From an uncultured Actinomycetota bacterium (GTDB lineage: Bacteria > Actinomycetota > Thermoleophilia > RBG-16-64-13): a stretch of DNA of 64,000 nt. The stretch spans positions 129,674 through 193,673 of the forward strand of contig CAWGGI010000010.1 of NCBI GenBank assembly GCA_963822135.1. Direction: 5' to 3'. The notes under the pieces were generated by a model. It saw only the letters and a program-made list of their open reading frames with translations, ran no database searches and had not been told where the DNA came from. The translations under genes and the position numbers were made by a program. Of the stretch, positions 25,088 to 56,730 are shown in pieces; positions within the stretch are counted from its first letter, which is position 1; each line of letters opens with the position of its first letter.

Positions 25088-25116
25088 TTGACAACGTCAC
25101 GGTTTGTCGCTAGGCT
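25088..25116 (+). promoter_or_regulatory. sigma-70/SigA-like promoter of the corrinoid operon
   Basis: TTGACA (25088-25093), 17 nt spacer, TAGGCT (25111-25116), in an AT-rich island about 95 nt upstream of ATG 25210. Confidence 0.5.
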
Positions 25117-25209
25117 AGGTCGCACCCACCACCCAGCCGCCGGCAAGAACCGGGCGGGCGGAATCACTGTGGGCAGAAATGGTCGATCATCAAGAGGAGC
25201 AGGAAGCCG

Positions 25210-25845
25210 ATGAACGAGACCTCACCCCTCGCCCAGGCCGTGGGCGACCTCGAAGAAGACAAAGCCGTGGTCTTGGTCCAAGACAAGCTCGCCAAAGGAG
25301 AGCCGGCCCTTTCAATCCTGGAAGAACTGCAGGCCGGCATGGCGATCGTGGGCGAGAGGTTCGAGGAGGGCGAGTACTACCTCTCCGAGCTCATCTACGC
25401 CGCCGACATCTTCAAGAAGGCGGGAGCTCCGCTTCAGCAAGAACTGGCTCAGGCCGCCCAGACCAGCTGTGGCACCCTGGTCCTGGGTACGGTCAAGAAC
25501 GATATCCACGACTTCGGCAAGGACATCGTGGCTACCATCATGAGCTCCAATGGCCTCAGGGTCATCGACCTGGGGGTGAACGTGGAGCCGCAGGCCTTCG
25601 TCGATGCCATCAAGGAATCGGGCGCCACGCTCGTGGGCATGAGCTGTCTGCTCACCACCGTCTTCGATGACATGAAGCAGGCCATCCAGGCCATCAAAGA
25701 CGCCGGTCTCCGCGACAAGGTGACCATCCTCATCGGGGGCGGTCCCGTGGACCAGGCTACCGCCGACTTCGTGGGCGCCGACTACTACTGCAAGACTGCT
25801 CAAGACGGAGTGGCCGCCGCCAAGAAGGTACTGGGGGTGAGCTAG
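25210..25845 (+). CDS. cobalamin-binding corrinoid protein (MtaC/MtbC/OdmA-like)
   Basis: Intact 211 aa. N-terminal B12-binding-2 helical cap, then the Rossmann domain with the DxHxxG..SxL..GG signature (NDIHDFGKD ... GMSCLLTT ... ILIGGGPV). Confidence 0.85.
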   Translation: MNETSPLAQAVGDLEEDKAVVLVQDKLAKGEPALSILEELQAGMAIVGERFEEGEYYLSELIYAADIFKKAGAPLQQELAQAAQTSCGTLVLGTVKNDIHDFGKDIVATIMSSNGLRVIDLGVNVEPQAFVDAIKESGATLVGMSCLLTTVFDDMKQAIQAIKDAGLRDKVTILIGGGPVDQATADFVGADYYCKTAQDGVAAAKKVLGVS

Positions 25846-27012
25846 ATGTCTGAAATGCAGCACGATAGTGCACCGGCCGCCGCTCCGGGCAACGGAGCGC
25901 CCGGCTTCGCCCCGCCCCCGCTCTTCTTGGAGCGGATGACCCGGCTCCAGACCGCGATCGCCTGCGGCACTCCCGACCGGGTGCCCCTCTCCCTGGTGAT
26001 GGACCTCTTCGCCGCCAACACCATGGGCGTGAGCTATACGGACTTCGTCGCCGATGTCGACACCGCCGGACGCACCATGCTCGGCGCCATGGAGAAGCTG
26101 GGGGACGTCGATTCCATCCAGTTCCCCACCTACGCTCCCGATGTGCTCGGCATGCTGTGGCTCGCGCCCATGAAGCTCCCCGGCCGCGACCTGCCCGAGC
26201 ACGCGCAGTGGCAGATGGACGAGCAGGTGCGCATCCAGCGCGAGGACTACGACCGCATCCTCGAGATGGGCTGGACCCCCTGGCTGGGGCAGTACATCGG
26301 GAAGTACCTGGGCGCCGCCGCCGCCGCCGGCCAGGCGCTGGCCGAGGCCGGTCCTCGGTGGACCATTGAGTACATGAAGCGAGGCTATGTCGTCTTCTCG
26401 CCCTTGACAGTCGACCACCCCTTCGAGCACCTGGCGGGAGGGCGCACGGTCAAGGAGTTCACCCTCGACCTCTTCCAGATCCCCGACAAGATCGAGGCTG
26501 TTCTCGAAGTGATCATGGCCGAGAAGCGGGAGCAGTCTCGCCAGTTCGTGCGGGCCGTCGGGCAACCTGTCGGTTATTGGGTGGGAAGCTGGCGGACGGC
26601 TCCGGAGTTTCTCTCCCCGCGCCTGTGGGACCGTTTCGTGTGGCCGTATATGAAGGAGCTCGTGGAGATCGTGGCCGAAGAAGGCGGCACTCCCGTGCTC
26701 CATTACGACGCCAATTGGGACAGGGAGATCGAACGGCTGAGGGAGTTGCCCGCGCGCAGGTGCGTGCTCGAGCTCGACGGCAAGACCGACATCTTCCGGG
26801 CGAAGAAGATCCTGGCCGGCCATATGTGCCTGCTGGGCGACGTGCCCCCGGCGCTTCTCACCCTGGGCACCGCAGATGAGGTCAAGGCCTACTGCCACCG
26901 GCTGCTTACGGACGTCGGCCCCGACGGCTACATCATGGCCATGGGCTGCGCCATCCCACCCGACGCCAAGTTCGAAAACGTCAAGGCGATGGTCGACTCG
27001 GTCAAGGGGTGA
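25846..27012 (+). CDS. URO-D/MtaA-CmuA family methyltransferase (paralogue A)
   Basis: Intact 388 aa. The start abuts the corrinoid protein stop. The C-terminal half aligns with 35899-37005 (HYDANWD..LELDGKTDI..GDVPPALLTLGTADEV..GCAIPPDAKFENV). Confidence 0.7.
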   Translation: MSEMQHDSAPAAAPGNGAPGFAPPPLFLERMTRLQTAIACGTPDRVPLSLVMDLFAANTMGVSYTDFVADVDTAGRTMLGAMEKLGDVDSIQFPTYAPDVLGMLWLAPMKLPGRDLPEHAQWQMDEQVRIQREDYDRILEMGWTPWLGQYIGKYLGAAAAAGQALAEAGPRWTIEYMKRGYVVFSPLTVDHPFEHLAGGRTVKEFTLDLFQIPDKIEAVLEVIMAEKREQSRQFVRAVGQPVGYWVGSWRTAPEFLSPRLWDRFVWPYMKELVEIVAEEGGTPVLHYDANWDREIERLRELPARRCVLELDGKTDIFRAKKILAGHMCLLGDVPPALLTLGTADEVKAYCHRLLTDVGPDGYIMAMGCAIPPDAKFENVKAMVDSVKG

Positions 27013-27023
27013 CAGGCGGCGGC

Positions 27024-27947
27024 ATGCAGCCTTATACGATCTCAGAGGTGGAGCGCGCGACCGGTGTCGGCCGCGACACGATCTATTTCTACATTCGTGA
27101 AGGGCTGCTGCCCCCGGCTCAGAAGGCCAGCGCCACCCGGTCCATCTACTACCGGTCGCACGTAGAGCTGCTGCGGGAGATCGTCCGGCTGAAGGAGGAG
27201 GGTGTCAGCCTCAAAGCGATTCGAGCCCGTCTGCGTGATCGCATCGAGGCCGCAGCGGATGCCGGGGTCGATCTGGTGGCCAAGCAGAGCGAGGACGCGC
27301 GCAACGCAATCCTGCAGGCAGCCGCGCGCCGTTTCGCCCAACGAGGGTACGAGCGGACCCGGATAGCGGATCTGTGCGAGGAGGTCGGCATCACCGCCCA
27401 AGTGCTCTACAGTCACTTTCCCAGCAAGCGGCATCTTTTCATCAACTGCTACGAGGTCTACTTCGCCTGGATGTACGCGCGTGTTCAGCCGGCCATCGAC
27501 GATACCGACGATCTCAACGCCCGTCTTGCTTGGCGCAGCTGGGCATCGTATGGCATCCAGGCGTTCAGTCCAGATCTCCAGGCGATGGCGCGAGCAGAGG
27601 CGATCCATCCCGAGAGCGACCTGCGTCCGCTGGTACGAGAGCTCTACGGCAAGATCCTGGAGAGCACGGTACAGGAACTCAGTGCGGAGCGGCGCCCAGG
27701 AGCCAATCCCGGGCTCTTCGAAGACGAACTCGTGGCTTATGCATTCGAGGGCGCGTTGGGGAACATGCAGATGCGGGCGTCGTGGGACGAGAGGTACAGC
27801 AGACGCGACGTCATGCGTACACTCCTCTCCATGTACATGGCCGTGCGTGCTGCCTATGACGGCCGGGTCGACCTGAGTGACGAGTGGCGGGTTGTCTCCG
27901 GAGTGGTCGACACACTGGCTGCCAGCAGCCCGACGCGAGCGACGTGA
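27024..27947 (+). CDS. MerR-TetR fusion transcriptional regulator
   Basis: Residues about 4-70 form a MerR HTH (YTISEVERATGVGRDTIYFYIREGLL..Y..HVELLREIVRLKEEGVSL). Residues about 95-140 form a TetR HTH (ARNAILQAAARRFAQRGYERTRIADLCEEVGITAQVLYSHFPSKRHLF), followed by a TetR-like C-terminal domain. Confidence 0.75.
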   Translation: MQPYTISEVERATGVGRDTIYFYIREGLLPPAQKASATRSIYYRSHVELLREIVRLKEEGVSLKAIRARLRDRIEAAADAGVDLVAKQSEDARNAILQAAARRFAQRGYERTRIADLCEEVGITAQVLYSHFPSKRHLFINCYEVYFAWMYARVQPAIDDTDDLNARLAWRSWASYGIQAFSPDLQAMARAEAIHPESDLRPLVRELYGKILESTVQELSAERRPGANPGLFEDELVAYAFEGALGNMQMRASWDERYSRRDVMRTLLSMYMAVRAAYDGRVDLSDEWRVVSGVVDTLAASSPTRAT

Positions 27948-28040: not shown

Positions 28041-29045
28041 GTGAAAGTTCTTGGCATCTCGTGCGGCCGGCGCATGAGCAACACCGAGATCATGGTCAAA
28101 GAGGCCCTGATGGGGGCCGAGGAAGCGGGTGCCGAGGTCCAGTTCCTGCGCCTGCAGGACTACTACATCAAGCCCTGCACCGGGTGCAACTCCTGTGTGG
28201 TCGATCTTATGGAGAAGCACGGCGGCGGCGCCTGCGTGCTCCGCAACGACGACTTCCCTTTCATCGACGACCTGATCATGGACTGCGACGCCCTCATCCT
28301 GGGCTCGCCCATCTACGAGAAATCCCCGAGTGGCCAGCTGAAATCGCTGCAGGACCGCATGGGCCCCAGCCACGACGTCGGCTTCCGCATGATCGCCCAG
28401 AAGATGCGCGAGGAGAAAGGCATCACCACCGGCACGGGTCCCGACCCGCGGGCGTTCAAGCCCCGCACCGCTTCGCTGATCGCCGTCGGCGGGAGCGAGT
28501 GGGATACCCTGGCGCTACCCACCATGGGCATGTTCGCTCTCACGCACCAGATGACCGTCGTCGACCAGATCCTCATCAACTGGATCGGGCTGCCCAAAGT
28601 CGTCACCTTCCACGAGGACAAGCTGGCGCGGGCGCACCGCTCCGGCAAGCACGTGGTGGAGAGCTATTTTAAGGGCGTGGAGAACGCGGAGTACATCGGT
28701 GAGGAAGGTCTCTGCCCGATGTGCCACTGCAAGCTCATCGAGATCCGCAACGGCCACGATCCCTATCCGGCTGTCTGTGGTATGTGCGGCGTGCGCGGCA
28801 CGTTGACCACCGACGCCGACGGCAAAGTCTTCTTCGACGTCAAGGAAGAGGACAGAGTCCACTCGCACCTGCTGCTCTCGGGCAAGTTCGAGCATCTGCA
28901 GGAGCTGGCGGACGTGTCCCTCAAGCCGCCGGCGAACTACCACGAGGTCAACGACCGGGCTAAGAAGTACCGCGAGTATCTGACTCCGATCAAGCCTCCG
29001 GCGCGCGACAAGGGCGAGAAGCCGGAACAGGGCGAAGAGGTCTAG
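28041..29045 (+). CDS. iron-sulfur flavoprotein (Isf)-like, flavodoxin-fold, with C-terminal 4-Cys ribbon domain (paralogue 1)
   Basis: Intact 334 aa. GISCGRRMSNTE, Cys cluster CTGCNSC..(12)..C, then the flavodoxin-like LILGSPIYEKSPSG. The C-terminal pair is CPMCHC...CGMCG. Confidence 0.6.
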   Translation: MKVLGISCGRRMSNTEIMVKEALMGAEEAGAEVQFLRLQDYYIKPCTGCNSCVVDLMEKHGGGACVLRNDDFPFIDDLIMDCDALILGSPIYEKSPSGQLKSLQDRMGPSHDVGFRMIAQKMREEKGITTGTGPDPRAFKPRTASLIAVGGSEWDTLALPTMGMFALTHQMTVVDQILINWIGLPKVVTFHEDKLARAHRSGKHVVESYFKGVENAEYIGEEGLCPMCHCKLIEIRNGHDPYPAVCGMCGVRGTLTTDADGKVFFDVKEEDRVHSHLLLSGKFEHLQELADVSLKPPANYHEVNDRAKKYREYLTPIKPPARDKGEKPEQGEEV

Positions 29046-29047: not shown

Positions 29048-29881
29048 ATGGCGTACTTCCCGGAATTCCGCCCCATGCGGAGCTTCATCCTGCAGAACTT
29101 CCGCTCCGACAACGATCGCCCGGCCATCTGGCGTTGGCTCTACAAGCAGCACGTGCCGGAGAGCATCTCTCAGTTCATGCCCTACTGCACCAAGTACTGC
29201 ACATACCACGCCCTGCCGCTACCCGAGGGCGCCAAGGACTTCGGTACCTACAACGGGATGATGACCGAGCACTACTGGCTCTTCAACATCTTCCAGGACA
29301 AAGGCACCGGCATGCCCCGCGGCCTGGCCTTTGGCGAGGAGTTCCCGGAAGACTTCATGGAGCGCACGAGCCAGCCGCCCAGCAAGGAACTGCGGCAGTC
29401 CGGTTGGCAGGGAAGCCGCGACGGTTACCATCCCATAGTCTTCTCGTTCGCACCCATCTTCTGGGAGGACGACTTCAAGGGGGAGGGCCGGCTCACCGAC
29501 GCCGGGCCCAACTACCGCTGGCTCTTCTTACTGAAATACCCGGACGGCGTCTCCGTCGATGAGGGCGACGCCTGGTTCAAGGAAGTGTTCGCGCCCGAGA
29601 TCTGCGCCAACCCCGAGGTGAACCGCATGATCTCCAGCCGCCAGCTGGACGACCCGCGGATCAACCCCTTCCAGCGCATCGTCGAGGTCTGGTTCGACGA
29701 CTCGGAGGGGTGGCGCCGCGCGATGGTGAAGAAGGCGGACACGTACACCAAGCCGGCGTGGGCGACCTGGGACCGGGCGCCCTTCTTCGAGCCCTACAAG
29801 GACTTCGTGGGGATCTTCATCCTCGACCGGCCCGACTCCGACCACCTGCAGCAATGGCGGGGGTATATCACGACGAGGTAG
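29048..29881 (+). CDS. hypothetical protein, possibly tandem EthD-like (dimeric alpha/beta-barrel) domains
   Basis: Intact 277 aa, 2 nt after the Isf-like gene. The second half (LKYPDGVSVDEGDAWFKEVFAPEI...RIVEVWFDDSEGWRRAM) resembles EthD-type domains. Recognised by eye only. Confidence 0.35.
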   Translation: MAYFPEFRPMRSFILQNFRSDNDRPAIWRWLYKQHVPESISQFMPYCTKYCTYHALPLPEGAKDFGTYNGMMTEHYWLFNIFQDKGTGMPRGLAFGEEFPEDFMERTSQPPSKELRQSGWQGSRDGYHPIVFSFAPIFWEDDFKGEGRLTDAGPNYRWLFLLKYPDGVSVDEGDAWFKEVFAPEICANPEVNRMISSRQLDDPRINPFQRIVEVWFDDSEGWRRAMVKKADTYTKPAWATWDRAPFFEPYKDFVGIFILDRPDSDHLQQWRGYITTR

Positions 29882-29935: not shown

Positions 29936-30580
29936 CTAGATTTCGGACTCCACGTCGTCTTGCGGCACCCGTTCTGGGCGGAGGGAGTCAAGCATCCGCT
30001 TGACGTTGCGGCTGAGGATGCCTTCGTCGATGAACTCTCGGGCGCCGGCCATGACGGAAATGTCCTCGACCCAGGCGAACATCTGCAGGGCCCAGGCCAC
30101 GTCTTCGGGGAGAACATCCTCGCTGATGGAGCCTTGACGCTTGCCTTCCTCGGCGATGGCGACAAGGGCCTTGTGGATGCGGAAGTCGGTGATCCTCAGA
30201 GGGGGGTCGCCGCTGTCTGGGTGTCTGGAGGCCAGTTCCAGAAAGAACGGGCGCACCACGCTATTGAAGTGCTCCCTCGCCCATGCGGCATGAGTCTTGG
30301 TCAACTCCTCCAGACGCTGCAGTGCATCTGGGTTTGCCGAGGAATCCACCCAGTTCATCGCGCGCTCGTTGGCCAACTGATTCGCCTCCGATAGCAACGC
30401 TGCTCGGTTATCGAAGTGCCGGTAGAGCGCCCCGGGGGTGACTCCGACGGCAGCCGCGATCCGCGATACCGTCGCACCCTCGAGGCCATGTTCGCTGATG
30501 ACCCGGAGCGTGGCGTCGAGTATCTCCTCGCGCCGCTCCTGCTGGCTCTTCCGCGTATGGCTCTTCACGTAGCTGGACAT
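29936..30580 (-). CDS. TetR/AcrR family transcriptional regulator (paralogue of 57500-58189)
   Basis: Intact 214 aa. The HTH is ATVSRIAAAVGVTPGALYRHFDNRAALL. Divergent from the liv-type operon. Confidence 0.85.
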   Translation of the reverse strand: MSSYVKSHTRKSQQERREEILDATLRVISEHGLEGATVSRIAAAVGVTPGALYRHFDNRAALLSEANQLANERAMNWVDSSANPDALQRLEELTKTHAAWAREHFNSVVRPFFLELASRHPDSGDPPLRITDFRIHKALVAIAEEGKRQGSISEDVLPEDVAWALQMFAWVEDISVMAGAREFIDEGILSRNVKRMLDSLRPERVPQDDVESEI

Positions 30581-30681: not shown

Positions 30682-30781
30682 AGTAAAGCAGCATTTACGT
30701 GAATAAATTTTACGAGAAGTCTGGTCGCGTCCCTGACGCGATGCGAGCGTGGTAATTGCGGTATCCGCCAGGGGGGACCGA

Positions 30782-31659
30782 TTGGTCAAGTGGATCCAGT
30801 TGCTGGTCACCGGGATCACGGTGGGGAGCATCTACTCCCTGATCGCGCTGGGCTACGTGACCATCTACCGGACCTCACGCATCGTCAATATGGCCCAGGG
30901 CGCCTTTGTCATGTTCGGCGCCTTCTTCGCGTTTTCGTTCCTGTCTGAGCTCGGTCTGCCCTACTGGCTCTCAGCCATCCTCTCGATCGTGTGCGTGGTG
31001 CTCTGGGTGTGGTCATGTACCTGTTGGTGCTGCGGCCTCTCGTCAAGATCTCGCTCGTCTCCATCATCTTGGCCACCATGGCGCTGAGCATCCTGTTCGA
31101 GAACGTCGCGCTGCTCAAGTGGGGGGGCTACGGTAAGAGCGTCCCGGCTTTCACCGGCGACCAAGCCCTCTTCATCGGCAAGGTGGCGGTCTTCCCGCAG
31201 AGCCTGTGGGTGATCGGGCTGATGATCCTGGTGCTCATTGGCCTCTACGCGCTCATCAACCTGACCCGCGTGGGCAAGCAGATGACTGCGACGGCCAACG
31301 ACCCCGGCGCCGCCAGTCTGTCCGGCGTTAACACGGGCAGGATGATCCTCCTGGCCTTTGCCATCTCGGCCGCCATCGGGGCCCTGGGCGGTATCGCCAT
31401 CACTCCCATCAACTCGACCTCGTACCTTTCGGGAGGCATCTTTGCTCTGAGCGGCTTCGTGGCCGCCATCCTGGGGGGGTGGGGGTCGAGCGTAGGGGCT
31501 GTGGTGGGCGGCCTCACCCTGGGGATCATCCAGTCTTTGACCACGGGCTTCCTGCCCGCGGGATATCAGGACGCCATCGCCTATCTCGTGCTCATCCTCA
31601 TCCTCTACTTCCGGCCCGGCGGTATCATCGGTCAGCCTTCGGCCGAGGGCGAGGCGTGA
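30782..31659 (+). CDS. livH: branched-chain-amino-acid-type ABC transporter permease LivH (1 frame change near 31000)
   Basis: LVTGITVGSIYSLIALGYVTIYRTSRIVNMAQGAF.. then VMYLLVLRPL..ATANDPGAASLSGVN..LYFRPGGI. TTG 30782 is taken as the start. Confidence 0.8.
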
Positions 31660-32729
31660 TGCAGCGTCTCGCCTTCATGAAGAGCCAAAGCTTCCTCTTC
31701 AAGGCTCTGCTCCTCGTCATCCTGTTGATATGGCCACTCCTCTATCAGAGCGGATACGCCATGCGCATAATGACCACGGGTGGTCTCTACACCATCATCA
31801 CCATCGCGGTGGTCATCATCCTGGGCCAGGCCGGGCAGCTGTCGTTCGGCCATTCGGCCTTCTACGGCATCGGCGCGTACACCGCCGCGATGCTTACCAT
31901 GAAGGCCGGGTTCCCCACCCTGGCCGCTCTGGTCATCGGGGCCTTGGTGGCCGGTGTCATCGCTCTCATCGTGGGCCGGCCGGTGCTCAGGCTGCGCTAC
32001 TTCTATCTGGCCTTGGCTACCATCGGCCTGGGCCAGATCTTCCTGGTGCTGATCCAGCAACTTCGGACCATCACCGGCTCGACCACCGGGCTCGCCCCCG
32101 TGCCCTATCTCAGCATCTTCGGCTTCGATTTCAACACCAACCTCCGCCAGTACTACCTGGTGTGGGTGGCGGCCGCGATCATCATCGTCTTCATCGACCG
32201 GGCCCTCAAGTACCGGGCCGGGCGGGCTCTGCGCGCCATCGCCACCAGTGAGATCGCCTCCAAGAGCTTGGGCGTCCGCACGGCCAACTGGAAGCTTCTC
32301 GCCTTCGTTGCGAGCGCCATCATCTGCGGGTTGGCCGGTGGCTTCTACGCCTTCGTCAGCATGGCCGTCACGCCCGGGGCTTTCACCTTCACCGCCGCCA
32401 TCCTCCCCATCGTCATGATGCTGCTGGGCGGGGGGACCGTCTGGGGGTCGGTCGTGGGGGCCATCCTCATGACCTGGGTCATCAACGGGTTCTCCGGCGT
32501 CCAGCAGTACAGCGGAGTGCTCTATTCGGTCATCATGATCCTCCTGCTCATATTCCTTCCCGCCGGGCTGCTGCTGCGGCCCGATCAGCGGGCTCGTCTC
32601 AAGGCCCTGGTTCGGCGGGAGAGACTGCAAGAGCCGGCCCAATGCCTCGTCGCGGCCGAGGAAGGGCGAGGCTGCCGGCCAGTGCACCACGACGGTGGGC
32701 ATGCCCCTGGCCGTATCGCCGGGGGTTGA
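31658..32729 (+). CDS. livM: branched-chain-amino-acid-type ABC transporter permease LivM
   Basis: ATG 31658 overlaps the livH stop (ATGA). ILGQAGQLSFGHSAFYGIGAYTAA, RAGRALRAIATSEIASKSLGV. Confidence 0.8.
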
Positions 32730-34361: not shown

Positions 34362-34417
34362 AACGCACGCTTTCAGATAAAGGGGGAGGTAACGACGTGA
34401 AAGACAGGGAGGATCGG

Positions 34418-44420: not shown

Positions 44421-44493
44421 CGGGTGAAGGGCCTTGCGTTGATAGGCGGGGGACTATCATGTGCGCTGGAGTACAAGAGCAGAAGGAGCACGC

Positions 44494-49171: not shown

Positions 49172-49219
49172 GGGCGCCGGGCCGCCGCCGAGAGGCGGCG
49201 CCCGGCGCCTGTCGTTTTT
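49172..49219 (+). terminator. rho-independent terminator
   Basis: GGGCGCCGGGCCGCCGCC-gaga-GGCGGCGCCCGGCGCC followed by TGTCGTTTTT, 28 nt after the stop. Confidence 0.75.
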
Positions 49220-49268: not shown

Positions 49269-49731
49269 ATGACCACTATCTTCGTCGACGCCGATGCCTG
49301 TCCGGTCACGCGCGATGCCATCGCCGCGGCCCGATCTCGGTCGCTCCCCGTAGTGCTGGTCGCCAACCAGTCCCAGAACCTTTCTCGCTTTGCCGGACGC
49401 GCGGGGGTGGAGATCCTCCAGGTAGCGTCGGGACAGGACTCGGCGGATTTCGCCATGGTGCCCCGCCTGGCTCCGGGAGACGTCGTGGTGACAGGCGACA
49501 CCGGGCTTGCAGCCATGGCCCTGAGTCGAGGGTGCCGCGTCTTGAGTCCGCGAGGGCGCGAGTTTCTTGTCCGCAACCATCGATGCCGAACTGGCCATCC
49601 GTTATGCGGAGCAGCGCCATCGACGGGCGGGCGGCCGCACGACCGGACCCAGCCCCTTCCGCGAGGAAGATCGGGAACGGTTCCGAGAGGTGCTGACACG
49701 CCTGCTGGATGAGAGGGCCGACGCCGGCTGA
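49269..49731 (+). CDS. UPF0178 (YaiI/YqxD) family protein (1 frame change near 49570)
   Basis: MTTIFVDADACPV...LVANQSQ..VASGQDSADFAMV..GDVVVTGDTGLAA, then in the +1 frame IDAELAIRYAEQRHRRAGGRTTGPSPF. Confidence 0.7.
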
Positions 49732-50830
49732 TCGGGGGAGCTCCTCACGACCACGACGCAGCAGCCTACGACCGACCACGCAGCAGCCTACGACCACGGC
49801 GCAGGCTCCTGCGACCACGACTACGACGCAGCGGCCTACGACGACGACATTGGCGGCTAACACGTGGAGTGAACTCGGTCCTACTCCCCCGCCGCCCGCC
49901 AGCGTATATGGCTCGATGGTGTACGACTCTGTCCGCCATGTGGCCCTCTATTTTGGCGGTGAGCTTGCGGGGGGCTACTCCAACAGCACCTGGGCCTACG
50001 ATCCGGCCGCCAACACCTGGGCCGATCTGAAGCCCAGCGGCGTCGTTCCGTCCACCCGCAGCAACGCATCGATGGCCTACGACCCGATCGGGGACAGGTT
50101 CATCCTCTTCGGCGGGCAGGTGTACGAGCAGAAGAAGGATGAATCGGTTTGGTCCAATGACACCTGGGCCTACGATCCCGCCGCCAATACCTGGGCTGAG
50201 CTGAAGCCAAGCGGCGCTGTTCCCTCGCCCCGTTCAATGACCTCGCTGGTGTATGACCCGGCAGGCAAGAAGATGATCCTATTCGGTGGCGGGAACGGAC
50301 AGACGGCCTTCAACGACACCTGGACCTACGATCCGGCGGAAAACCGATGGACTGAGCTGGAGCCGAGCGGTTCACCGTCAAAATGCCTAGGATTTGCGAC
50401 GGCGTATGACCCTGCCCGCCGAGCGGTCCTCCTGTTTGGCGGCGAGGGCATGGAAGGGTACCTGAACGATACTTGGTCCTATGACCCGGCTGCAAACACG
50501 TGGACCGAATTGAAGCCCGTTGCCGCCCCCAGCGCCCGCTTCGGCTCCGCGATGGTCCACGACCCCGCCGGGAACAGGTTCATCCTTTTCGGCGGCGGAG
50601 TCTATGTCTCTAGGCTCGAAATGGAGTGCTTCGGCGACACTTGGTCCTATGACCCGGTGGCAAACACCTGGACGGAGCTGAAGCCCGATGCCGCCCCCAC
50701 CGCCCGCTTCGGTTCCGCTATGGTCTTTGATCCCGTGTCCGCTGTGGCCATCCTCTTTGGCGGCGCGGTCGTACAACTGAACGAGTCATCGATCTACGAC
50801 GACACTTGGTCCTTCTACCCCGGGGAGTAG
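49709..50830 (+). CDS. Kelch-repeat (beta-propeller) protein with Thr/Pro/Gln-rich N-terminal linker and no signal peptide
   Basis: Six repeats of the type (D/S)TW.YDPAANTW.ELKPSG..P..R...MVYDP...FILFGG. The first 23 nt overlap the yaiI end. Confidence 0.75.
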   Translation: MRGPTPADRGSSSRPRRSSLRPTTQQPTTTAQAPATTTTTQRPTTTTLAANTWSELGPTPPPPASVYGSMVYDSVRHVALYFGGELAGGYSNSTWAYDPAANTWADLKPSGVVPSTRSNASMAYDPIGDRFILFGGQVYEQKKDESVWSNDTWAYDPAANTWAELKPSGAVPSPRSMTSLVYDPAGKKMILFGGGNGQTAFNDTWTYDPAENRWTELEPSGSPSKCLGFATAYDPARRAVLLFGGEGMEGYLNDTWSYDPAANTWTELKPVAAPSARFGSAMVHDPAGNRFILFGGGVYVSRLEMECFGDTWSYDPVANTWTELKPDAAPTARFGSAMVFDPVSAVAILFGGAVVQLNESSIYDDTWSFYPGE

Positions 50831-51157
50831 CTGAAACATCGCGGAAGGAGCCGTACGCGTCGCCAGCTTTCTCACCCCTTCCCCAAACCTTGCGCGTAGG
50901 CTCGAGTCCCAACCGGGCCAAGATTCAGGACCCCTTCTGGCGCCCGTCGACCCGGTTTGCTAGTGTGCCAGTCGGAGAGGAGCAGCTAGGTCGGGATGAT
51001 CAGGTGGATCCGTCACAGGTAGACGAGGGGGAGGTCCCGGGGAGCCCCGTCCCGGAAGCTGACGCCTCGGACGCTAGCGCGGCCGAGGCTACCGCGGTAG
51101 AGGACACACTCGGAGGCGACACCGTCCCAGGGCGGGCGCTCGCGGAGCCGCGTTCCT

Positions 51158-51595
51158 TTGTGGGTGATCCTGGCGCTGGCCGGTCTGTTCGGCGGCGTCG
51201 TCGGCCTCGGCCTCTTCACTATCGACTATGCCTCTGGGGCGTCGTACCTGTCCAACGATCCCGAAGCATGCGCAAACTGCCACATCATGTGGGACCAATT
51301 CGACGGGTGGAATCGTGGTCCCCACCACACGGTCGCTACGTGCAACGATTGTCACGCGCCTCACGACAGCCTCATCCGCAAGTACGTGGTCAAGGCGATC
51401 AACGGGGTGAGGCACAGCTACGCGTTCACCACGGGCGACTTCCCGGAGCCCATCCGGATCACGCCCATGAATGAAGACATCGCGCGCGAGGCCTGCCTGT
51501 ATTGTCACGGCTCGCTGACGAACGATATCAACCACGCCGACACTGCAGGGCCCACCGACTGTCTGCGGTGTCACAGTGGTGTGGGCCACGGATGA
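51158..51595 (+). CDS. nrfH: cytochrome c nitrite reductase small subunit NrfH (NapC/NirT tetraheme)
   Basis: One TM segment (WVILALAGLFGGVVGLGLF) then four CxxCH motifs: CANCH, CNDCH, CLYCH, CLRCH. TTG start. An acidic upstream stretch in another frame (from GTG about 51004) could be an N-terminal extension if an indel is present. Confidence 0.85.
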   Translation: MWVILALAGLFGGVVGLGLFTIDYASGASYLSNDPEACANCHIMWDQFDGWNRGPHHTVATCNDCHAPHDSLIRKYVVKAINGVRHSYAFTTGDFPEPIRITPMNEDIAREACLYCHGSLTNDINHADTAGPTDCLRCHSGVGHG

Positions 51596-51628: not shown

Positions 51629-52927
51629 GTGAAGACTAAGCGTGTGTGGTTGTGGATCGGCGTGGCCTTCGTGGTCGGCCTTGTCCTTGCGGGGGGCATC
51701 GCCGCCGTGCTCACGAGTGTCCAGACGCACAAGAATGAGGAAGCGGTCGCGTCGATCACGGTCACACCGGTGGGCGATAAGGAGCTCGATCCGGCGGTCT
51801 GGGGGCAGAATTTCCCCCGCGAGTACGAGTCCTTCCAGCAGACCGAGATCGACGGCGTTGCGACGCCCTACGGCGGCTCCGACCCGATCGACAAGCTGGC
51901 GCGGTATCCAATCCTGAAGCGGATATGGGCCGGCAACGCGTTCAGCGTCGATTTCAACGAGGACCGCGGCCACTACTACGCGCTGATCGACCAGAAAGAG
52001 ACGGAGCGTCAGGAAGTCGTCAAGCAACCGGGCGCGTGCGCCAACTGCCACGCGGCCGAGGCGCCGCTCCTGATCGAGTCGATGGGCTGGGAAGCGTTCA
52101 ACTCGACGCCGTACAAGGAGCTCGAAGGGCAGCTGACCATGGGTTCGACGTGCCGCGACTGCCACGATCCGCAGACGATGGATCTCTGGATCAGCCGGCC
52201 CGCGTTCAAGAACGCGATGGCGGCGCGCGGGGTCGATCTCTCCCAGGCGACGCGGCAGGAGATGCGGACCTACGTCTGCGCGCAGTGCCACGTGGAGTAC
52301 TACTTCAAGGGAGACCAGAAGCTACTGACCTTCCCTTGGGACAAGGGCCTGCAGATCGAGAACATCAACCAGTTCTACGACGAGTACGGTTTCAAGGACT
52401 GGGTGCACAAGGAAACCGGCGCGCCGATGCTCAAGATGCAGCACCCCGAGTTCGAGATGTTCTCCACAAGCCTGCACTATCGCTCGGGAGTGTCCTGCGC
52501 GGACTGCCACATGCCGTACGTACGCGAGGGCGCGACCAAGGTCTCGGATCACTGGCTGCGCAGCCCCCTGACCAACGTGAACGCGGCCTGCGGGACGTGC
52601 CACAAGGAAGATGAGCAGGCGCTGAAGGACCGGATCGCCGTGATCCAGGACAACACTGCCCAGCTTCTCCGCACGACCGAAGGGGCTCTGGAAGCCGCGA
52701 TCGATGCGCTGGCGAAGGCCAAGGCCGGCGGATTCACCGACGATCAGTTGAAGGAGGCGCAGAACTTCCACCGCCAGGCGTCGATGCGGTATGACTTCGT
52801 CATGTCGGAGAATTCCACCGGGTTCCATAGCCCGCAGGAGTCCGCCCGGGTGCTGGGGAACGCGATCGACCTCGCGCGGCAGGCCCAGATCACGGCTGAA
52901 CGCCTGATGGCGGCCGCTCAGCAATAA
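51629..52927 (+). CDS. nrfA: pentaheme cytochrome c nitrite reductase NrfA (CxxCH at heme 1)
   Basis: GTG follows GGAGGAGG. N-terminal TM anchor. Heme motifs are CANCH, CRDCH, CAQCH(VEYYF), CADCH, CGTCH. KMQHPEFEMF matches the NrfA Ca-site region. No CxxCK is present. Confidence 0.9.
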   Translation: MKTKRVWLWIGVAFVVGLVLAGGIAAVLTSVQTHKNEEAVASITVTPVGDKELDPAVWGQNFPREYESFQQTEIDGVATPYGGSDPIDKLARYPILKRIWAGNAFSVDFNEDRGHYYALIDQKETERQEVVKQPGACANCHAAEAPLLIESMGWEAFNSTPYKELEGQLTMGSTCRDCHDPQTMDLWISRPAFKNAMAARGVDLSQATRQEMRTYVCAQCHVEYYFKGDQKLLTFPWDKGLQIENINQFYDEYGFKDWVHKETGAPMLKMQHPEFEMFSTSLHYRSGVSCADCHMPYVREGATKVSDHWLRSPLTNVNAACGTCHKEDEQALKDRIAVIQDNTAQLLRTTEGALEAAIDALAKAKAGGFTDDQLKEAQNFHRQASMRYDFVMSENSTGFHSPQESARVLGNAIDLARQAQITAERLMAAAQQ

Positions 52928-52986: not shown

Positions 52987-53769
52987 ATGACTCAGAGATT
53001 CAGCGGCAAAGTGGCACTTGTGACCGGCGGCGCGTCCGGTATCGGGCGGGCGGGCGCGTTGTTGTTTGCCCGGGAGGGAGCCCAGGTGGTGGTATCCACC
53101 GACGCCAACCGCCTGGGCTGCGAAGAGACCTGCGACATGATCGCCGACGCCGGCGGGGAAGCCTCGTACGTCCAGTGCGACGTCTCCAAGGAAGCCGACG
53201 TGAAGGCGCTGGTGGAGGAGTGCATCCGGCGGCATGGCCGGCTGGACTTCGCCTTCAACAACGCCGGCATCGGACCCGACGGCAAACGCGTGCCCGTCGT
53301 GCCGATCGTGGATATGCCCGAAGACCTCTGGGACCGCACGCTCGACATCAACCTCAAGGGCGTGTTTCTGTGCCTCAAGTATGAGCTGCGGCAGATGATC
53401 GCGCAGGGGTCCGGCGCCATCGTCAACACCTCATCCGTGGGGGCTCTGAAGCCCTTGCCGGGATTCTGCGCCTACGGCGCCAGCAAAGGGGGCCTCAACG
53501 TGCTCACCAAGACGGCGGCGCTGGAAGGGGCCGAGCACAACGTGCGGGTGAACACCATCATGCCCGGTCCCACACAGAATACGCTGCTCTTCGACTATCT
53601 CACCACGGCCGACCCGGCCATGAAGACCGACATGGAGAAGTCCGTCCCGCTGGGGCGCCTAGGCTTCGCTACCGACATGGCCGAAGCGGTGATCTGGCTG
53701 TGCTCCGATGCGGCGAACTTCATCACCGGACAGTGCATCGGCGTCGACGGGGGCCTCACAGCACGGTAG
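52987..53769 (+). CDS. SDR family oxidoreductase
   Basis: Intact 260 aa. GKVALVTGGASGIGRA, NNAGIG, YGASKGG (YxxxK), ITGQCIGVDGG. Close paralogue of 12667-13435. Confidence 0.85.
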   Translation: MTQRFSGKVALVTGGASGIGRAGALLFAREGAQVVVSTDANRLGCEETCDMIADAGGEASYVQCDVSKEADVKALVEECIRRHGRLDFAFNNAGIGPDGKRVPVVPIVDMPEDLWDRTLDINLKGVFLCLKYELRQMIAQGSGAIVNTSSVGALKPLPGFCAYGASKGGLNVLTKTAALEGAEHNVRVNTIMPGPTQNTLLFDYLTTADPAMKTDMEKSVPLGRLGFATDMAEAVIWLCSDAANFITGQCIGVDGGLTAR

Positions 53770-53814
53770 GCGCGTCGGTCCGGCAGACAAGACCGAGCGA
53801 CCGAAGGAGTCGAC

Positions 53815-54255
53815 ATGGCGGACAGCAGCACCAACAAGGACGTCGTCCTGCACTTCCTCACCGAAGTCTTCGTCAACCATGACATGACCCGGCTGGACGA
53901 ATACATGCGCGACGACTACATCCAGCACAATCCCGACTGTCCGCAGGGTAAGGCCGGCTTTGTGAAGTTCTTCGATGTCATCTTCCGGGCCATGCCGGAC
54001 TTTCGCTACCACGTAAGAGAGGTTGTGGCCGACGGTGACATGGTGATGGCCTGGGTCACGACGCAGGGCACCCACACCGGGAGCGAATTCCTGGGACAGG
54101 CGGCCGGCGGCAATCAGGTGAAGTTCGACGCAGTGGACATCTTCCGCATGCAGGACGGCCTCATAGCCGAGCACTGGGATGTAGCCGACACCTTCACCTT
54201 CTTCTCGCAGCTGGGCATCGTCCAGGGGGCGGAGGATCGGCAGAGGAAGGAGTGA
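53815..54255 (+). CDS. SnoaL-like / NTF2-fold protein (predicted ester cyclase family)
   Basis: Intact 146 aa. NKDVVLHFLTEVFVNHDMTRLDEYMRDDYIQHNP...DIFRMQDGLIAEHWDV. Confidence 0.7.
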   Translation: MADSSTNKDVVLHFLTEVFVNHDMTRLDEYMRDDYIQHNPDCPQGKAGFVKFFDVIFRAMPDFRYHVREVVADGDMVMAWVTTQGTHTGSEFLGQAAGGNQVKFDAVDIFRMQDGLIAEHWDVADTFTFFSQLGIVQGAEDRQRKE

Positions 54256-54259
54256 AACG

Positions 54260-55259
54260 GTGACCTTTTCGCCCTCACCCTCGTCTTCGGCGGCTCCGTC
54301 GCCCTTCGAGAGGTATGTCGTGAGGAGGCCTCTCGCGGAAGGCGGCTGTCCCGGCGTGCAGGGGCGCGATGCGTCACGGCGGGTGTTTCTGAGCGAGGCT
54401 CAGGTCCCAGGCTGCGGCCATTATCTGGACATGACCTGGATCGATTCGAGCTCGGAACCGGGCAGCTTCGCCACCGAAAGAGTGCTCGAGCACGACCAGC
54501 TCATATTGAGCATCGGGATGGACTGGCGGCGACCCCAGAAGCTCGGGGCCACGGCGGAGTTCTATCTCGGCGGACAGTCCATCGTCTTCAACACCACCAC
54601 GTCCCTCTTCATTCCCAAGGGCACGCCGTATGGGCCCCTGGGGTGGAAGGAGGTCAGGCTACCTTACGTGATGCTGTGCGCTGGTCTTCGGAAGCGGCGA
54701 GGAACCTGTCGGTCGGTGGTGGGACGCAGAGGCCGCCCGGGCGCACTCCGCGCCCCCCGTGCCCATCCCTGGGACGGCGGCCCCCGGCGCCGGCATCGAC
54801 TACGAGCAGTACGTCGTCCGCAGTCCGCTACGCGAGGCCGGTCCGGTGCACGTGGACGGCCGGCAGAACCCCACGATGACGTATCTGAGCGCGAATCAGA
54901 TCCCCGGGCTGAAGACGTACCTGGAGTTCGGGTGGATCTGGGACGTTCCCCAGCCGCCCATCCCCAAGATGCGCCACGATGACTTCGACGAGATCGTGGT
55001 GCACATCGGCAGCGACCCCGACTGTCCCGAGGACCTGGGCGGCATCCTGCAGTTCGGGGTGGGCGAGGATATGCTGGAGTTCGACACCACGCACTGCGCC
55101 TATCTGCCGCGAGGCCTGGACCACGGTCCCCTCGCGTGGACGGAGGTCCGTCGGCCGCTGATCGAGTTCGCCCTGATGCTGGGGGCCGGCACTCTGGCCG
55201 AGGGTTGGGCCAACAGCTTCTTCGACCTGCCCGACGGCGGGCGCCGAGGACCGAAATAG
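54260..55259 (+). CDS. bicupin-like protein of the uncharacterised cupin family (1 frame change near 54690)
   Basis: N-terminal half ..EHDQLILSIGMD..LFIPKGTPYGPLGW. C-terminal half (+1 frame) RHDDFDEIVVHIGSDPD..AYLPRGLDHGPLAW. Both halves are collinear with 13441-13869 and 55333-55818 but the metal ligands are partly replaced. Confidence 0.5.
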
Positions 55260-55332
55260 GAGCCGCGCGCGACCGGCTCGCTCGGCGCGCCGCATGAGCT
55301 GACCACCATGCCTGTGACTACGGAGGCTTGAG

Positions 55333-55818
55333 ATGAGCGACGAGGCCGGCGGATCGAAGTACGGCAAATACATCGTCACCGAGCGGAGGTTCGACTCCCG
55401 CGACGCGGCTCTGCCCCCGGGGGTGGATCCAGAAAGCATCACCAACACCGCTTCCCACCGCAAGATCATAGGCTTGGACGACTACGTGCTCAAAGGCTCC
55501 ATGTACACCGAGACGGTGTGGATGTGGCCGGGCGGCAGCGACATCTACCCCGAGACGGCCGAGCCCGCCTCCCACGCCCATGATTACGACGAGATCCTGG
55601 GGTTCTTCGGGACCGACTTCGCGGATCCCTATGATCTGGGCGGCGAGATCGAGCTGTGGATCGAGGACGAGAAGTTCCTGCTCACCAGGAGCAGCCTCAT
55701 CTTCATCCCCAAGGGCACCTACCACTGCCCGCTGGTGATCCATCGGGTGGACCGCCCGATCTTCCACTTCTCCTCGGGCCCGGGCGGCGCATACGCACAG
55801 GAGATGGCCGAGAAATGA
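55333..55818 (+). CDS. uncharacterised metal-binding cupin (paralogue of 13441-13869)
   Basis: Intact 161 aa. SHAHDYDEILGFFGTD (HxHxxxE), IFIPKGTYHCPLV, RVDRPIFHFSSGPG (compare RVDRPIFHFSTGTG in the paralogue). Confidence 0.6.
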   Translation: MSDEAGGSKYGKYIVTERRFDSRDAALPPGVDPESITNTASHRKIIGLDDYVLKGSMYTETVWMWPGGSDIYPETAEPASHAHDYDEILGFFGTDFADPYDLGGEIELWIEDEKFLLTRSSLIFIPKGTYHCPLVIHRVDRPIFHFSSGPGGAYAQEMAEK

Positions 55819-56730
55819 GCGACGACCGCCCCGACGGCCGCAGCCGCGCCGGCGACGGCGCGGGCCTGCAAGACGGCATCGGCGGCCCGGCCGCACCAGC
55901 GCTGGGCGTCCCTCCCATGACAACGCCCATCGGCGATCTTTCGAACCCTATGGACGTGGCGGGGAAGAACGTCGTGATCACAGGGGGGAGCGGGGGGATC
56001 GGGCTGGGTATCGCCCAGGCGTTCGCGCAGCGGGGAGCGCGGGTGGCCATCCTCGACGTGGATGTCGACGGGGGCAGGGCGGCGGCCGAGGGGCTTGCCG
56101 AGCGGGGGTCCGGCGAGGACGGTCCTCATCTCTCTGCCGCCTGCGATATCACCGACCGGAAGTCGGTCCGGGCGGCCGTGGACGCGGTGCTCGAGGCCTT
56201 CGGCCACATCGACATACTCGTGAACAACGCCGGCATCTCCGCGGTGAAGCCCTTTCTCGACATGGAAGACGACCTTCCCGAGTGGCACCGGGTCATCGAC
56301 GTGAACCTGCACGGCACCGCCAACATGACCCACGCCGTGGGCAACGCCATGCGGGCCGCCGGCCGGGGCGGGCTGATCATCAACATCTCCTCGGTGGGCG
56401 GGGCGACCTGCTCCGGGTCCAGAGAGATGCCCATGGTGGGATACGTGGCCTCGAAGGCGGCGCTCAACCATCTCACGCGGTCTTGGGCCATCGAGTTCGC
56501 CGAGTACGACATCCGCGTGAACTGCATCATGCCCGGTCCCACCCATTCCCGCCTGGACGCGCAACTCACTCCCGAGATGAGAGAGAGGAACAGTCCGCAG
56601 CATGCTCGACCGCCGGTGGGGCGAGCCGTTGGAGATCGGGGCGCTGTGCGTGTTCATGGCGTCGCCGGAGGGAGCGCATCTCGACGGGGTCGTGATTCAG
56701 CACGACGGCGGCTTCCTCTGCATCAACTGA
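55815..56730 (+). CDS. SDR family oxidoreductase (1 frame change near 56600)
   Basis: ATG 55815 overlaps the cupin stop (ATGA); the alternative start is ATG 55917. GKNVVITGGSGGIGLG, NNAGIS, YVASKAA (YxxxK), then in the +1 frame RRWGEPLEIGALCVFMASPEGAHLDGVVIQHDGG. Confidence 0.8.

Follow-up and report, generated by a model that had tools for sequence, protein, structure and literature searches.

A Probable Mosaic Island of Polyphenol-Catabolism Modules in an Uncultured Gaiellales-like Actinobacterium

Introduction

So far, Holophaga, Sporomusales and clostridia have been credited with most of the anaerobic breakdown of plant polyphenols (PMC8084988, PMC10470551). Here, we ask which part of this chemistry could be encoded by positions 25088-56730 of a 64,000-nucleotide stretch of contig CAWGGI010000010.1, which comes from an uncultured Actinomycetota bacterium and is referred to below as the window. 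A preliminary description of this interval had proposed that its corrinoid methyltransferases, importer, transhydroxylase-like pair, acyl-CoA dehydrogenase (ACAD) with electron transfer flavoprotein (ETF) genes, and short-chain dehydrogenases/reductases (SDRs) could belong to one fixed route for methoxylated gallate-type compounds. Does the interval encode a single pathway of this kind, or do its genes lie together for another reason?

The best explanation, which we hold with somewhat better than even confidence, is that the interval forms a mosaic polyphenol island of a Gaiellales-like actinobacterium from anoxic wetland or sediment. Such an island would hold at least three independently inherited catabolic modules together with an unrelated insert, and would not be one linear gallate pathway. 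The interval splits into four separable modules, namely A (25.2-38.0 kb), B (38.8-49.2 kb), C (49.3-52.9 kb, the insert) and D (53.0-56.7 kb). Judging from their sequences, these gene sets probably let the uncultured wetland actinobacterium degrade plant polyphenols without oxygen.

Results

A Methyltransferase Cluster Built around Flavone Reductase and Chalcone Isomerase Homologues

The G+C content of the window (~65%) crowds plain lists of open reading frames (ORFs) with shadow ORFs. The genes were called by codon-position G+C and annotated using Pfam, NCBIfam and PDB sequence searches; none of the key proteins reached an equivalog-level name in NCBIfam. Related loci and contigs that were compared with the window are labelled L001, L008, etc., and the coordinates of all the features are collected in Table 1.

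The corrinoid protein of module A carries a DxHxxG motif at residues 98-103, and the two UroD-superfamily methyltransferases, MT1 and MT2, score above the gathering score of Pfam URO-D. The best solved relative of MT1 is CdmB, the MT I of Acetobacterium (PDB 9rui, E 3e-21). UroD-type MT I enzymes demethylate methoxy-aromatics, and the family of CdmB includes MtvB, OdmB, VdmB and MtoB (PMC13222342). MT2 is 33% identical to MT1; its ORF opens at 35674 and the likely start is Met76. The corrinoid protein and a UroD-type MT I lie side by side, as in the O-demethylases of acetogens (MtvABC, OdmABCD, VdmB and MtoB, with Cdm as the structural relative). The window differs from these systems in that only the C-terminal half of its methyltransferase aligns to URO-D and CdmB and in that nitrite reductase genes are present in the same window.

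FLR1 aligns over residues 1-319 to residues 1-307 of the 310-aa flavone reductase (FLR) of Flavonifractor plautii (PDB 7D38), including the C-terminal extension of FLR. The F. plautii enzyme acts on flavones and flavonols by reducing their C2=C3 bond, with His271, Ile275, Thr279 and Lys282 as its substrate and catalytic residues (PMC7862272). The other FLR-like FMN reductase, FLR2, shares no more than 27% identity with FLR1 (279 residues). Both proteins carry a C-terminal four-Cys pattern, CPxCHC...CxxCG.

The chalcone isomerase (CHI) homologue aligns over its full length to the CHI of Eubacterium ramulus (residues 6-277 against 5-283 of the chain), with both ferredoxin-like domains covered. 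Its active-site residues were read from the PDB alignment against the lists given in PMC8361940 and PMC9694015. The protein keeps the catalytic His33, which PMC8361940 takes to be the clear marker of CHI activity, together with Tyr48, Thr71, His73, Trp75, Glu91 and Arg125, and has Glu in place of Asp36. The CHI family is rare (82 matches in 5.8 billion clusters), and an exact-sequence look-up of the window CHI returned no record. FLR1 and CHI each match over their whole length, and the two genes are adjacent, as in three related loci; the FLR-CHI adjacency is seen, for example, in L009. In contrast to the gut pathway of F. plautii and E. ramulus, the host is an environmental Gaiellales-like actinobacterium and not a clostridium, and the cluster adds corrinoid O-demethylase parts and a Liv-type importer.

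The L008 locus, whose CHI is 85% identical to that of the window, has the gene order LivH-LivMGF-solute-binding protein-FLR-CHI-UroD methyltransferase-ferredoxin-FAD_binding_2 reductase-DAPG_hydrolase-MerR/TetR. The DAPG_hydrolase family is that of phloretin hydrolase, and the L008 cluster appears to be close to a complete flavone-to-phloroglucinol set. The LivGF proteins of the window are 79% identical to the transporter that adjoins FLR-CHI in L008, the solute-binding protein is 51% identical to its L008 counterpart, and the fused MerR/TetR regulator is 59% identical to the regulator of the L008 FLR/CHI/phloretin-hydrolase cluster. A third contig with CHI holds an OYE/Pyr_redox_2 reductase, BKACE, thiolases and a Kelch gene.

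Since the methyltransferase cluster is built around FLR and CHI, we read module A as flavonoid chemistry, that is, as a flavonoid/methoxy-aromatic module. In the scheme that we propose, the Liv-type ABC system would import methoxylated flavonoids or related aromatics, and MT1 and MT2 would move the O-methyl groups onto the corrinoid protein; the activase and the enzyme that accepts the methyl groups would be encoded in another part of the genome. FLR1 and FLR2 would then act on flavones or flavonols by reducing their C2=C3 bond, and CHI would open the C ring via His33-type acid-base catalysis. The later steps, i.e., chalcone ene-reduction and C-C hydrolysis to phloroglucinol and a phenylpropionate, would be encoded outside the window; in L008, the ferredoxin, the FAD reductase and the DAPG-hydrolase-family gene could supply them.

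A Close Homologue of the Pelobacter Transhydroxylase

The transhydroxylase-like pair of module B matches the characterised enzyme of Pelobacter acidigallici (4V4C) closely and over the full length of both subunits. AthL, the large Mo-bisPGD subunit, shares 50.7% of 833 aligned positions with the large subunit of Pelobacter (residues 7-842 against 8-868 of the chain). BthL, the small FeS subunit, aligns over residues 1-271 to residues 1-272 of its chain; its Cys pattern fits three clusters and it ends in a C-terminal Ig-like domain, as in the beta subunit of Pelobacter. The N-terminus of AthL, MAEKTFVNCTGGGPIRV, contains no twin-arginine and no Cys motif, and hence no Tat signal and no FS0 motif, which is another likeness to the Pelobacter enzyme. 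The two enzymes differ in that the window AthL has Glu for Trp354 and in that the Actinomycetota AthL stands in an ETF-linked operon with a non-canonical ACAD and not beside phloroglucinol genes.

All seven pocket residues that were checked are retained in AthL (His144, Tyr152, Arg153, Asp174, Ser175, Tyr404 and Tyr560). Of these, Ser175 is reportedly the Mo ligand and the others active-site residues (Messerschmidt et al. 2004). The AthL2 paralogues of related loci always keep His144, Asp174 and Ser175 and mostly lose Tyr152, Arg153, Tyr404 and Tyr560. Because these paralogues lose most of the four residues that AthL keeps, the match of AthL is specific. AthL/BthL is predicted to be cytoplasmic and most likely isomerises pyrogallol-type 1,2,3- to phloroglucinol-type 1,3,5-trihydroxybenzenes by hydroxyl transfer.

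A catechol-dehydroxylase or lignan-type role for the Mo enzyme was set aside, as the AthL-specific pocket residues are retained.

The second pair, AthL2/BthL2, is found beside AthL/BthL in the Thermoleophilia metagenome-assembled genomes (MAGs) L014, L015, L016, L018, L024, L038 and L046, in most of them at ~13.4-16.9 kb of the locus. AthL2 is 31-40% identical to AthL (31-37% by tblastn; 38% in L018, over aligned columns), and these pairs are Mo enzymes from the AthL family.

The nearest genome is an uncultured Gaiellales MAG with an AthL 93% identical to that of the window; the best metagenomic homologue found in another search is 88% identical. Further AthL homologues occur in Actinomycetota/Thermoleophilia MAGs (74-91%), in Dehalococcoidia (64-70%), and in Desulfobacterota and Proteobacteria (60-62%). 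AthLS homologues in sediment Chloroflexi had already been noted by Hug et al. 2013 (PMC3971608). The metagenome runs that hold window sequence come from wetland, freshwater sediment and soil. Metatranscriptomes of sediment and wetland contain RNA contigs identical to AthL and near-identical to ACAD, which shows that both genes are transcribed in the environment.

An ETF Chain Linked to AthL/BthL in Actinomycetota

A block in which the CMD-like protein, the ETF dehydrogenase and EtfAB are divergent from LysR-ACAD-AthL-BthL was found in 14 of 16 Actinomycetota loci, and this block is absent from ~65 loci of other phyla. In 13 related loci, the CMD-like protein stands at the equivalent position with 72-90% conservation, and the gap between ACAD and AthL measures 14-66 bp across the loci.

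The ETF dehydrogenase is of the FeS/CCG type in the window, L001, L012, L014, L021 and L046, and a canonical ETF-QO takes the same position in L004 and L007. The swap of the two types at one position argues that it is the ETF-dehydrogenase function, and not just the gene, that is retained. Mycobacterial EtfD is a precedent for an ETF dehydrogenase of the FeS/CCG type (PMC8593149). As in the mycobacterial ACAD-EtfAB-EtfD chain, EtfAB of the window adjoins an FeS/CCG oxidoreductase; unlike in mycobacteria, the window ACAD has His for the catalytic Glu and the whole set is linked with the operon of a Mo enzyme. The ETF and its membrane dehydrogenase, which are co-inherited with LysR and the unusual ACAD, would be able to pass electrons to the quinone pool.

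The ACAD is a non-canonical member of its fold. It has His at the position of Glu376 of MCAD, with LHGF(S/A)TT where MCAD has YEGT, and a Gly/Pro-rich insert, GPQKDW[S/T]K...PPPF, at the site of the DHER of CaiA, where the CaiA/IVD-type Glu would stand. Of the enzymes compared, CaiA was aligned directly. Both features are kept in the correctly aligned orthologues of L004, L012, L017, L038 and L046. As the canonical catalytic Glu is missing, a role of this ACAD in the beta-oxidation-like steps of the preliminary description is uncertain.

Search for the Canonical Phloroglucinol and Gallate Genes

Orthologues 60-70% identical to the window AthL have DPGC-, BKACE- or 3HCDH-type genes within 10 kb in 16 Dehalococcoidia, Desulfobacterota and Proteobacteria loci. 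The order is AthL-BthL-ATP-grasp-BKACE-3HCDH-...-SDR in L062 and AthL-BthL-Cupin_2-SDR-CoA ligase-ECH-DUF35-thiolase in L072. No phloroglucinol-pathway gene was found near AthL in the window or within 10 kb in 16 Actinomycetota loci.

A tblastn search of all six frames of the 64-kb window with CsDPGC and with the BKACE and 3HCDH proteins of L062 gave no match at E <= 0.01, and phloretin hydrolase matched none of the window frames. For the UbiD/LpdC gallate decarboxylase, no Pfam UbiD was seen in the called genes and no match by tblastn, the latter being a weak test with only a UbiD_C fragment as the query. These results agree with the preliminary description, which had seen no gallate decarboxylase and no recognisable ring hydrolase or BKACE-type lyase in the window. 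With the Clostridium scatologenes phloroglucinol pathway (PMC10470551), the window shares only the enzyme class of phloroglucinol reductase (PGR), which is an SDR; the cyclase-family DPGC, the BKACE-type TAL and the 3HCDH-type TfD of that pathway have no counterpart.

The preliminary description had made the clustering of the SDRs with phloroglucinol reductases a test of its proposal. For the comparison, 150 residues of C. scatologenes PGR (CsPGR) were rebuilt from the mass-spectrometry peptide table of PMC10470551. SDR1 and SDR2 are 29-31% identical to these residues, which is the value for unrelated SDRs (27-32% for every SDR tested). With the AthL-linked SDR group of other phyla they share 31-40% identity, against 45-83% within that group; the group is itself only ~30% identical to CsPGR and is not validated as a proxy for PGR. 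No PGR-named structure or family was among the top PDB and NCBIfam hits of the window SDRs, both of which are generic in these searches. The PDB search with an AthL-linked SDR likewise gave generic top hits, e.g., gluconate 5-dehydrogenase, and none named PGR. The similarity of the window SDRs to PGR and to the AthL-linked group is, by these identities, family background, and the window SDRs do not cluster with PGR.

The SDR-SnoaL-Cupin Cassette and the Insert before It

Module D joins two SDRs with a SnoaL-like protein, a two-domain cupin-like protein (bicupin) and a 157-aa metal-cupin. The bicupin has no Pfam match, and the PDB sequence search with its 316-aa form gave no hit even at E 1. 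Its two domains are paralogues of one another and of the 157-aa cupin (28-36% identical). The family of the 157-aa cupin comprises 804 homologues, none with a Pfam annotation, and the HxH...E...H cupin metal motif is invariant or near-invariant in it. An AlphaFold2 model of this protein (pLDDT 67, core 75-88) matches the small cupins MarH, KdgF, TcmJ and quercetinase at E ~3e-4. The core SDR-SnoaL-bicupin-cupin follows BthL in L001 and L012 and is also found in a distant contig without AthL; in L010, a cupin homologue lies near an AthL-like pair and a ferredoxin-FAD reductase pair. We regard module D as an apparently autonomous cassette, possibly acting on a phenolic or cyclic-ketone substrate.

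A 109-aa Cupin_2 protein (L072, 13624-13953) stands directly 3' of BthL in many Desulfobacterota loci (L081, L063, L066, L069 and others). These proteins, from 16 loci, share 37-87% mutual identity; cupins thus accompany AthL/BthL in two unrelated lineages.

In the window strain, module D is separated from BthL by a terminator-like hairpin at 49193-49210 and by insert C. An MFS transporter gene occupies the position of insert C in L001-L003, and the insert is, by this comparison, strain-specific. NrfHA suggests nitrite reduction to ammonium and a respiratory lifestyle, which is outside aromatic catabolism.

The Kelch gene is cleanly missing from near-identical contigs of runs X2 and X3, which skip 1196 bases in the stretch 49738-50935. 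The Kelch-repeat protein has a Thr/Pro-rich N-terminal linker, and another contig has a Kelch gene beside CHI.

Are the Modules Linked in Relatives?

The contigs L001-L003, whose AthL is ~88% identical to that of the window, carry modules B and D and, in place of module A, a glycosyltransferase and an unknown gene. As these relatives lack module A beside B, the 30-kb adjacency of A and B is not conserved. Parts of module A nevertheless recur near AthL/BthL elsewhere. Two UroD methyltransferases directly follow BthL in L013. L021 has a methyltransferase-corrinoid protein-methyltransferase set directly upstream of the ETF block and another methyltransferase downstream. In L018, a Chalcone_N protein is encoded close to AthL. 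L014 and L046 have MerR/TetR regulators of the module A type together with the ferredoxin-FAD reductase pair that stands between the methyltransferase and phloretin hydrolase in L008. Homologues of the fused regulator (32-45% identical) adjoin AthL2 paralogues in L014, L046 and L024.

As module B is conserved in 14 loci and methyltransferase/corrinoid or chalcone-isomerase-like genes recur beside AthL/BthL, chance alone does not account for the juxtaposition of genes in parts of the region. A functional link between O-demethylation and trihydroxybenzene chemistry is plausible because corrinoid O-demethylase parts recur beside AthL/BthL in L013 and L021, the closest relatives. That the same functional classes surround AthL/BthL in varying orders plausibly reflects selection for a common theme of polyphenol catabolism and not a fixed pathway.

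Gene Content and Sequence Quality of the Region

Table 1. Features called in the interval and directly upstream of it.
Module	Feature	Position	Strand	Basis and remarks
Upstream	SDR	23210-23947	-	
Upstream	SDR	24145-25009	-	
A	Corrinoid protein	25210-25845	+	Pfam B12-binding_2 and B12-binding; NCBIfam methyltransferase-cognate corrinoid protein below cut-off
A	MT1, UroD-superfamily methyltransferase (MT I type)	25846-27012	+	Pfam URO-D 9e-28, C-terminal half
A	Fused MerR_1 + TetR_N regulator	27009-27947	+	Pfam
A	FLR1, flavone reductase homologue	28041-29045	+	Pfam FMN_red; PDB 7d38, E 4.9e-64
A	CHI, bacterial chalcone isomerase homologue	29048-29881	+	Pfam Chalcone_N; PDB 4d06/3zph (E. ramulus CHI), E 1.5e-52
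A	TetR regulator	29936-30580	-	Pfam TetR_N; 43% identical to TetR at 57500-58189
A	LivH, LivM, LivG-LivF ABC importer genes	30749-34361	+	Pfam BPD_transp_2; ABC ATPase motifs in translation
A	Peripla_BP_6 solute-binding protein	34397-35722	+	Pfam 1e-45
A	MT2, UroD-superfamily methyltransferase	~35899-37005	+	Pfam URO-D 4e-27; HxC motif
A	FLR2, FLR-like FMN reductase	37047-37961	+	Pfam FMN_red
Between A and B	PIN-domain (VapC-like) protein	38197-38604		
B	150-aa CMD/AhpD-like protein	38844-39299	-	Weak Pfam CMD match
B	Membrane FeS/CCG oxidoreductase, putative EtfD-like ETF dehydrogenase	39301-41535	-	Pfam 2x CCG and Fer4
B	EtfA	41553-42542	-	Pfam ETF, ETF_alpha
B	EtfB	42556-43332	-	Pfam ETF, ETF_alpha
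B	LysR regulator	43464-44357	+	Pfam; divergent from etfBA, co-directional with ACAD-AthL-BthL; position conserved
B	Non-canonical ACAD-fold flavoprotein	44461-45723	+	Pfam ACAD N, M and C domains; PDB ACADs 5e-49
B	AthL homologue, large Mo-bisPGD subunit	45790-48321	+	Pfam AhtL-like_1st (PF21423); 4v4c_A, E 3.8e-264
B	BthL homologue, small FeS subunit	48323-49144	+	4v4c_B, E 1.7e-53; Fer4_11 and CarboxypepD_reg
C	DUF188 (frameshifted)	49269-49712	+	Pfam
C	Kelch protein	49709-50830	+	Pfam
C	NrfH (cytochrome c nitrite reductase)	51158-51595	+	Pfam; heme motifs visible
C	NrfA (cytochrome c nitrite reductase)	51629-52927	+	Pfam
D	SDR1	52987-53769	+	Pfam adh_short
D	SnoaL-like protein	53815-54255	+	Pfam SnoaL 1.7e-31
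D	Two-domain cupin-like protein (bicupin)	54260-55259	+	Frameshifted near 54682-54766; 316 aa in relatives, intact in L001
D	157-aa metal-cupin	55333-55818	+	No Pfam match
D	SDR2	~55815-56700	+	Pfam adh_short; C-terminus frameshifted at ~56595, indel in X2 and X3; 288-aa L001 orthologue intact

All five gene sets of the preliminary description were found roughly where it had placed them: the corrinoid methyltransferase set, the Liv-type importer, the transhydroxylase-like pair, the ACAD with EtfBA and the membrane FeS/CCG oxidoreductase, and the SDRs with their SnoaL and cupin partners. FLR1, FLR2 and CHI had been overlooked within the methyltransferase set, and the count of five SDRs was wrong, there being two inside the interval and two upstream, i.e., four. 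The PIN protein, DUF188, the Kelch protein and NrfH/NrfA, all of which lie inside the interval, are outside aromatic catabolism. A sigma-70 promoter scan of the region gave hits no more frequent than chance.

At least five genes of the window appear to be frameshifted, namely LivH, LivG, DUF188, the 316-aa bicupin gene at 54260-55259 and SDR2; the breaks in the Liv importer are near 30998 and 33330. For the examination of these breaks, contigs sharing 30-70% of the window 31-mers were aligned onto the window; their source metagenomes were from wetland, sediment and factory samples. Relative to near-identical contigs of independent metagenomes, 1-base indels were seen at 30691, 30998, 33330, 49563, 54682 and 56595, with another at 54766 in an RNA-labelled run; other runs have a 1-base insertion at 38237 in the PIN gene. 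The indels lie at or near the frame breaks, and the affected genes are unbroken in relatives. Since the indels coincide with the breaks and the relatives carry unbroken copies, we regard the genes as probably intact. Errors of assembly, or else rare variants of the strain, are the probable source of the frameshifts, which are not taken as signs of decay, and these genes should not be called pseudogenes.

The same problem of 1-base indels affects the first ~9 kb of the window, where the reading frame changes about a dozen times. Positions 437-8973 encode alanine dehydrogenase, followed by HdrC-, HdrB-, HdrA- and MvhD-like genes and by more subunits of FeS and FAD/NAD oxidoreductases. That the frameshifts of the first 10 kb conceal a phloretin hydrolase or an ene-reductase was considered and rejected, as alanine dehydrogenase, Hdr/Mvh-like, FeS/flavin oxidoreductase and esterase genes are found there. 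Upstream of the corrinoid set (9000-10200 and the 16279-25009 region), there are two alpha/beta-hydrolase esterases, one of which belongs to the BD-FAE feruloyl/acetyl-xylan family (19010-19942). The region also encodes a sugar-type ABC transporter, a metallo-beta-lactamase-fold protein, an IlvD/Edd-type dehydratase and a pair of SDRs. Its products could release and process phenolics that are esterified or glycosylated, in keeping with the polyphenol theme.

Discussion

The gallate route that had been proposed for the interval would lead methoxylated gallate-type compounds through O-demethylation, decarboxylation, transhydroxylation, SDR reduction, ring opening and beta-oxidation-like ACAD/ETF steps. 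The identity of AthL/BthL is strong, methyltransferase and corrinoid genes recur beside this pair in L013 and L021, and the SDRs follow BthL on the same strand in relatives, all of which speaks for such a route. However, FLR and CHI stand at the core of the methyltransferase cluster, the UbiD-type decarboxylase, DPGC, TAL and TfD are missing from every window frame, and SDR1 and SDR2 resemble neither the CsPGR peptides (29-31%) nor the AthL-linked SDRs (31-40%) beyond the family level. The ACAD, too, has no catalytic Glu, module A is not beside B in L001-L003, and in this strain the terminator-like hairpin and the Nrf insert stand between BthL and the SDRs. A single fixed route is, on this evidence, improbable. 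We consider it equally unlikely that the modules are metabolically unconnected and were brought together only by local rearrangement in a variable genome region. That explanation would account for the non-conserved adjacency of A and B, for module D standing alone in a distant contig, for the PIN gene and the DUF188/Kelch/NrfHA insert interposed between the modules, and for the presence or absence of the Kelch gene among strains. Yet UroD methyltransferases, the corrinoid protein, Chalcone_N, MerR/TetR, the ferredoxin-FAD reductase pair and cupins recur near AthL/BthL, albeit in different orders, and such recurrence is hard to obtain without selection for a shared theme.

It is quite improbable that the actinobacterial AthL/BthL acts as a net hydroxylase, or in reverse as a dehydroxylase, on another phenolic or CoA ester, with ACAD and ETF as the route to or from menaquinone. 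Its retention of all seven checked Pelobacter pocket residues, and the embedding of its 60-70% identical orthologues in phloroglucinol clusters elsewhere, argue against such an activity, and ETF is not known to exchange electrons with the FeS subunits of Mo enzymes. The strict and lineage-specific linkage of ACAD, ETF and LysR, the short ACAD-AthL gap of 14-66 bp, the non-canonical ACAD, and the lack of phloroglucinol-pathway genes within 10 kb in the 16 Actinomycetota loci are what it would explain. A family precedent is provided by the resorcinol hydroxylase RhL, which belongs to the same Ser-ligated clade (PMC10100899).

The mosaic polyphenol island thus remains our preferred explanation, and several observations weigh against it. 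Both proposed routes are incomplete in the window. The ene-reductase and phloretin hydrolase were not found within the 64 kb, whereas an enoate reductase and phloretin hydrolase follow in the gut flavone pathway; PGR, DPGC, TfD, TAL and UbiD are missing as well. For MT II (the tetrahydrofolate methyltransferase) and the ATP-dependent corrinoid activase, which set the acetogen O-demethylases apart from the window, no pterin-binding or activase domain was seen in the called and scanned window ORFs, with some stretches, among them 1-10 kb except for two ORFs, read by eye alone. The hydroxyl-binding residues of CHI are replaced (Gln69 by Met, Asp79 by Ile, Lys87 by Leu, Gln101 by Thr and Asn122 by Ser), which makes its substrate uncertain; in the E. 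ramulus enzyme, these positions bind substrate hydroxyls, with Gln69, Asp79, Lys87 and Gln101 binding the 7-OH, 6'-OH and 4-OH (PMC8361940, PMC9694015). The lid of the window CHI is also 11 residues shorter than that of E. ramulus. The substrate range of the window enzyme is probably different, and its hydrophobic pocket would suit methoxylated or less hydroxylated substrates. In module B, Pelobacter AthL is uniformly 47-54% identical to the whole environmental clade, including the window protein, and transhydroxylation is redox-neutral, so the strict ACAD/ETF linkage is unexplained. The RNA runs hold just 6-11% of the AthL words and are too sparse to show co-expression or co-regulation. Finally, modules B and D occur without A in L001-L003. 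What the data show are the family memberships, the retained catalytic residues of CHI and AthL/BthL, the patterns of synteny, the lack of the canonical phloroglucinol genes and the in situ transcription of ACAD and AthL; we infer the substrates, the order of the steps, any metabolic hand-over between the modules and the roles of ACAD and module D.

A further idea, which we hold to be improbable, is that the transhydroxylase of Gaiellales/Thermoleophilia was recruited into an ETF-coupled, respiration-linked system. The His-variant ACAD and AthL/BthL would act together on a phenolic, with EtfAB and the ETF dehydrogenase leading to menaquinone, either for making a tetrahydroxybenzene cosubstrate or for net anaerobic hydroxylation. 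The SDR-SnoaL-cupin cassette could process the phloroglucinol-type product, by reduction followed by dehydration (cf. the fungal tetrahydroxynaphthalene reductase and scytalone dehydratase) or by ring opening through the metal-cupin, and would in this way replace the PGR/DPGC/TfD/TAL route.

The enzyme families described here are individually known. What is new is the host lineage, the occurrence of FLR and CHI together with O-demethylase parts, the lineage-specific ACAD-AthL-BthL-ETF block and the unannotated cupin cassette; a literature search found no paper that pairs these genes with Thermoleophilia. Anaerobic polyphenol breakdown is relevant to how peat and wetlands store carbon, as seen in the 'enzyme latch' view. 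If the mosaic polyphenol island is real, the genes of an abundant uncultured lineage of soil and wetland, Gaiellales/Thermoleophilia, would include those for flavone reductase, chalcone isomerase, parts of an O-demethylase and a transhydroxylase. The ACAD-AthL-BthL-ETF block would then point to an unstudied wiring of a Mo transhydroxylase into electron transport, and the SDR-SnoaL-cupin cassette, with its cupin family of 804 unannotated homologues, would be a defined target for the discovery of function.

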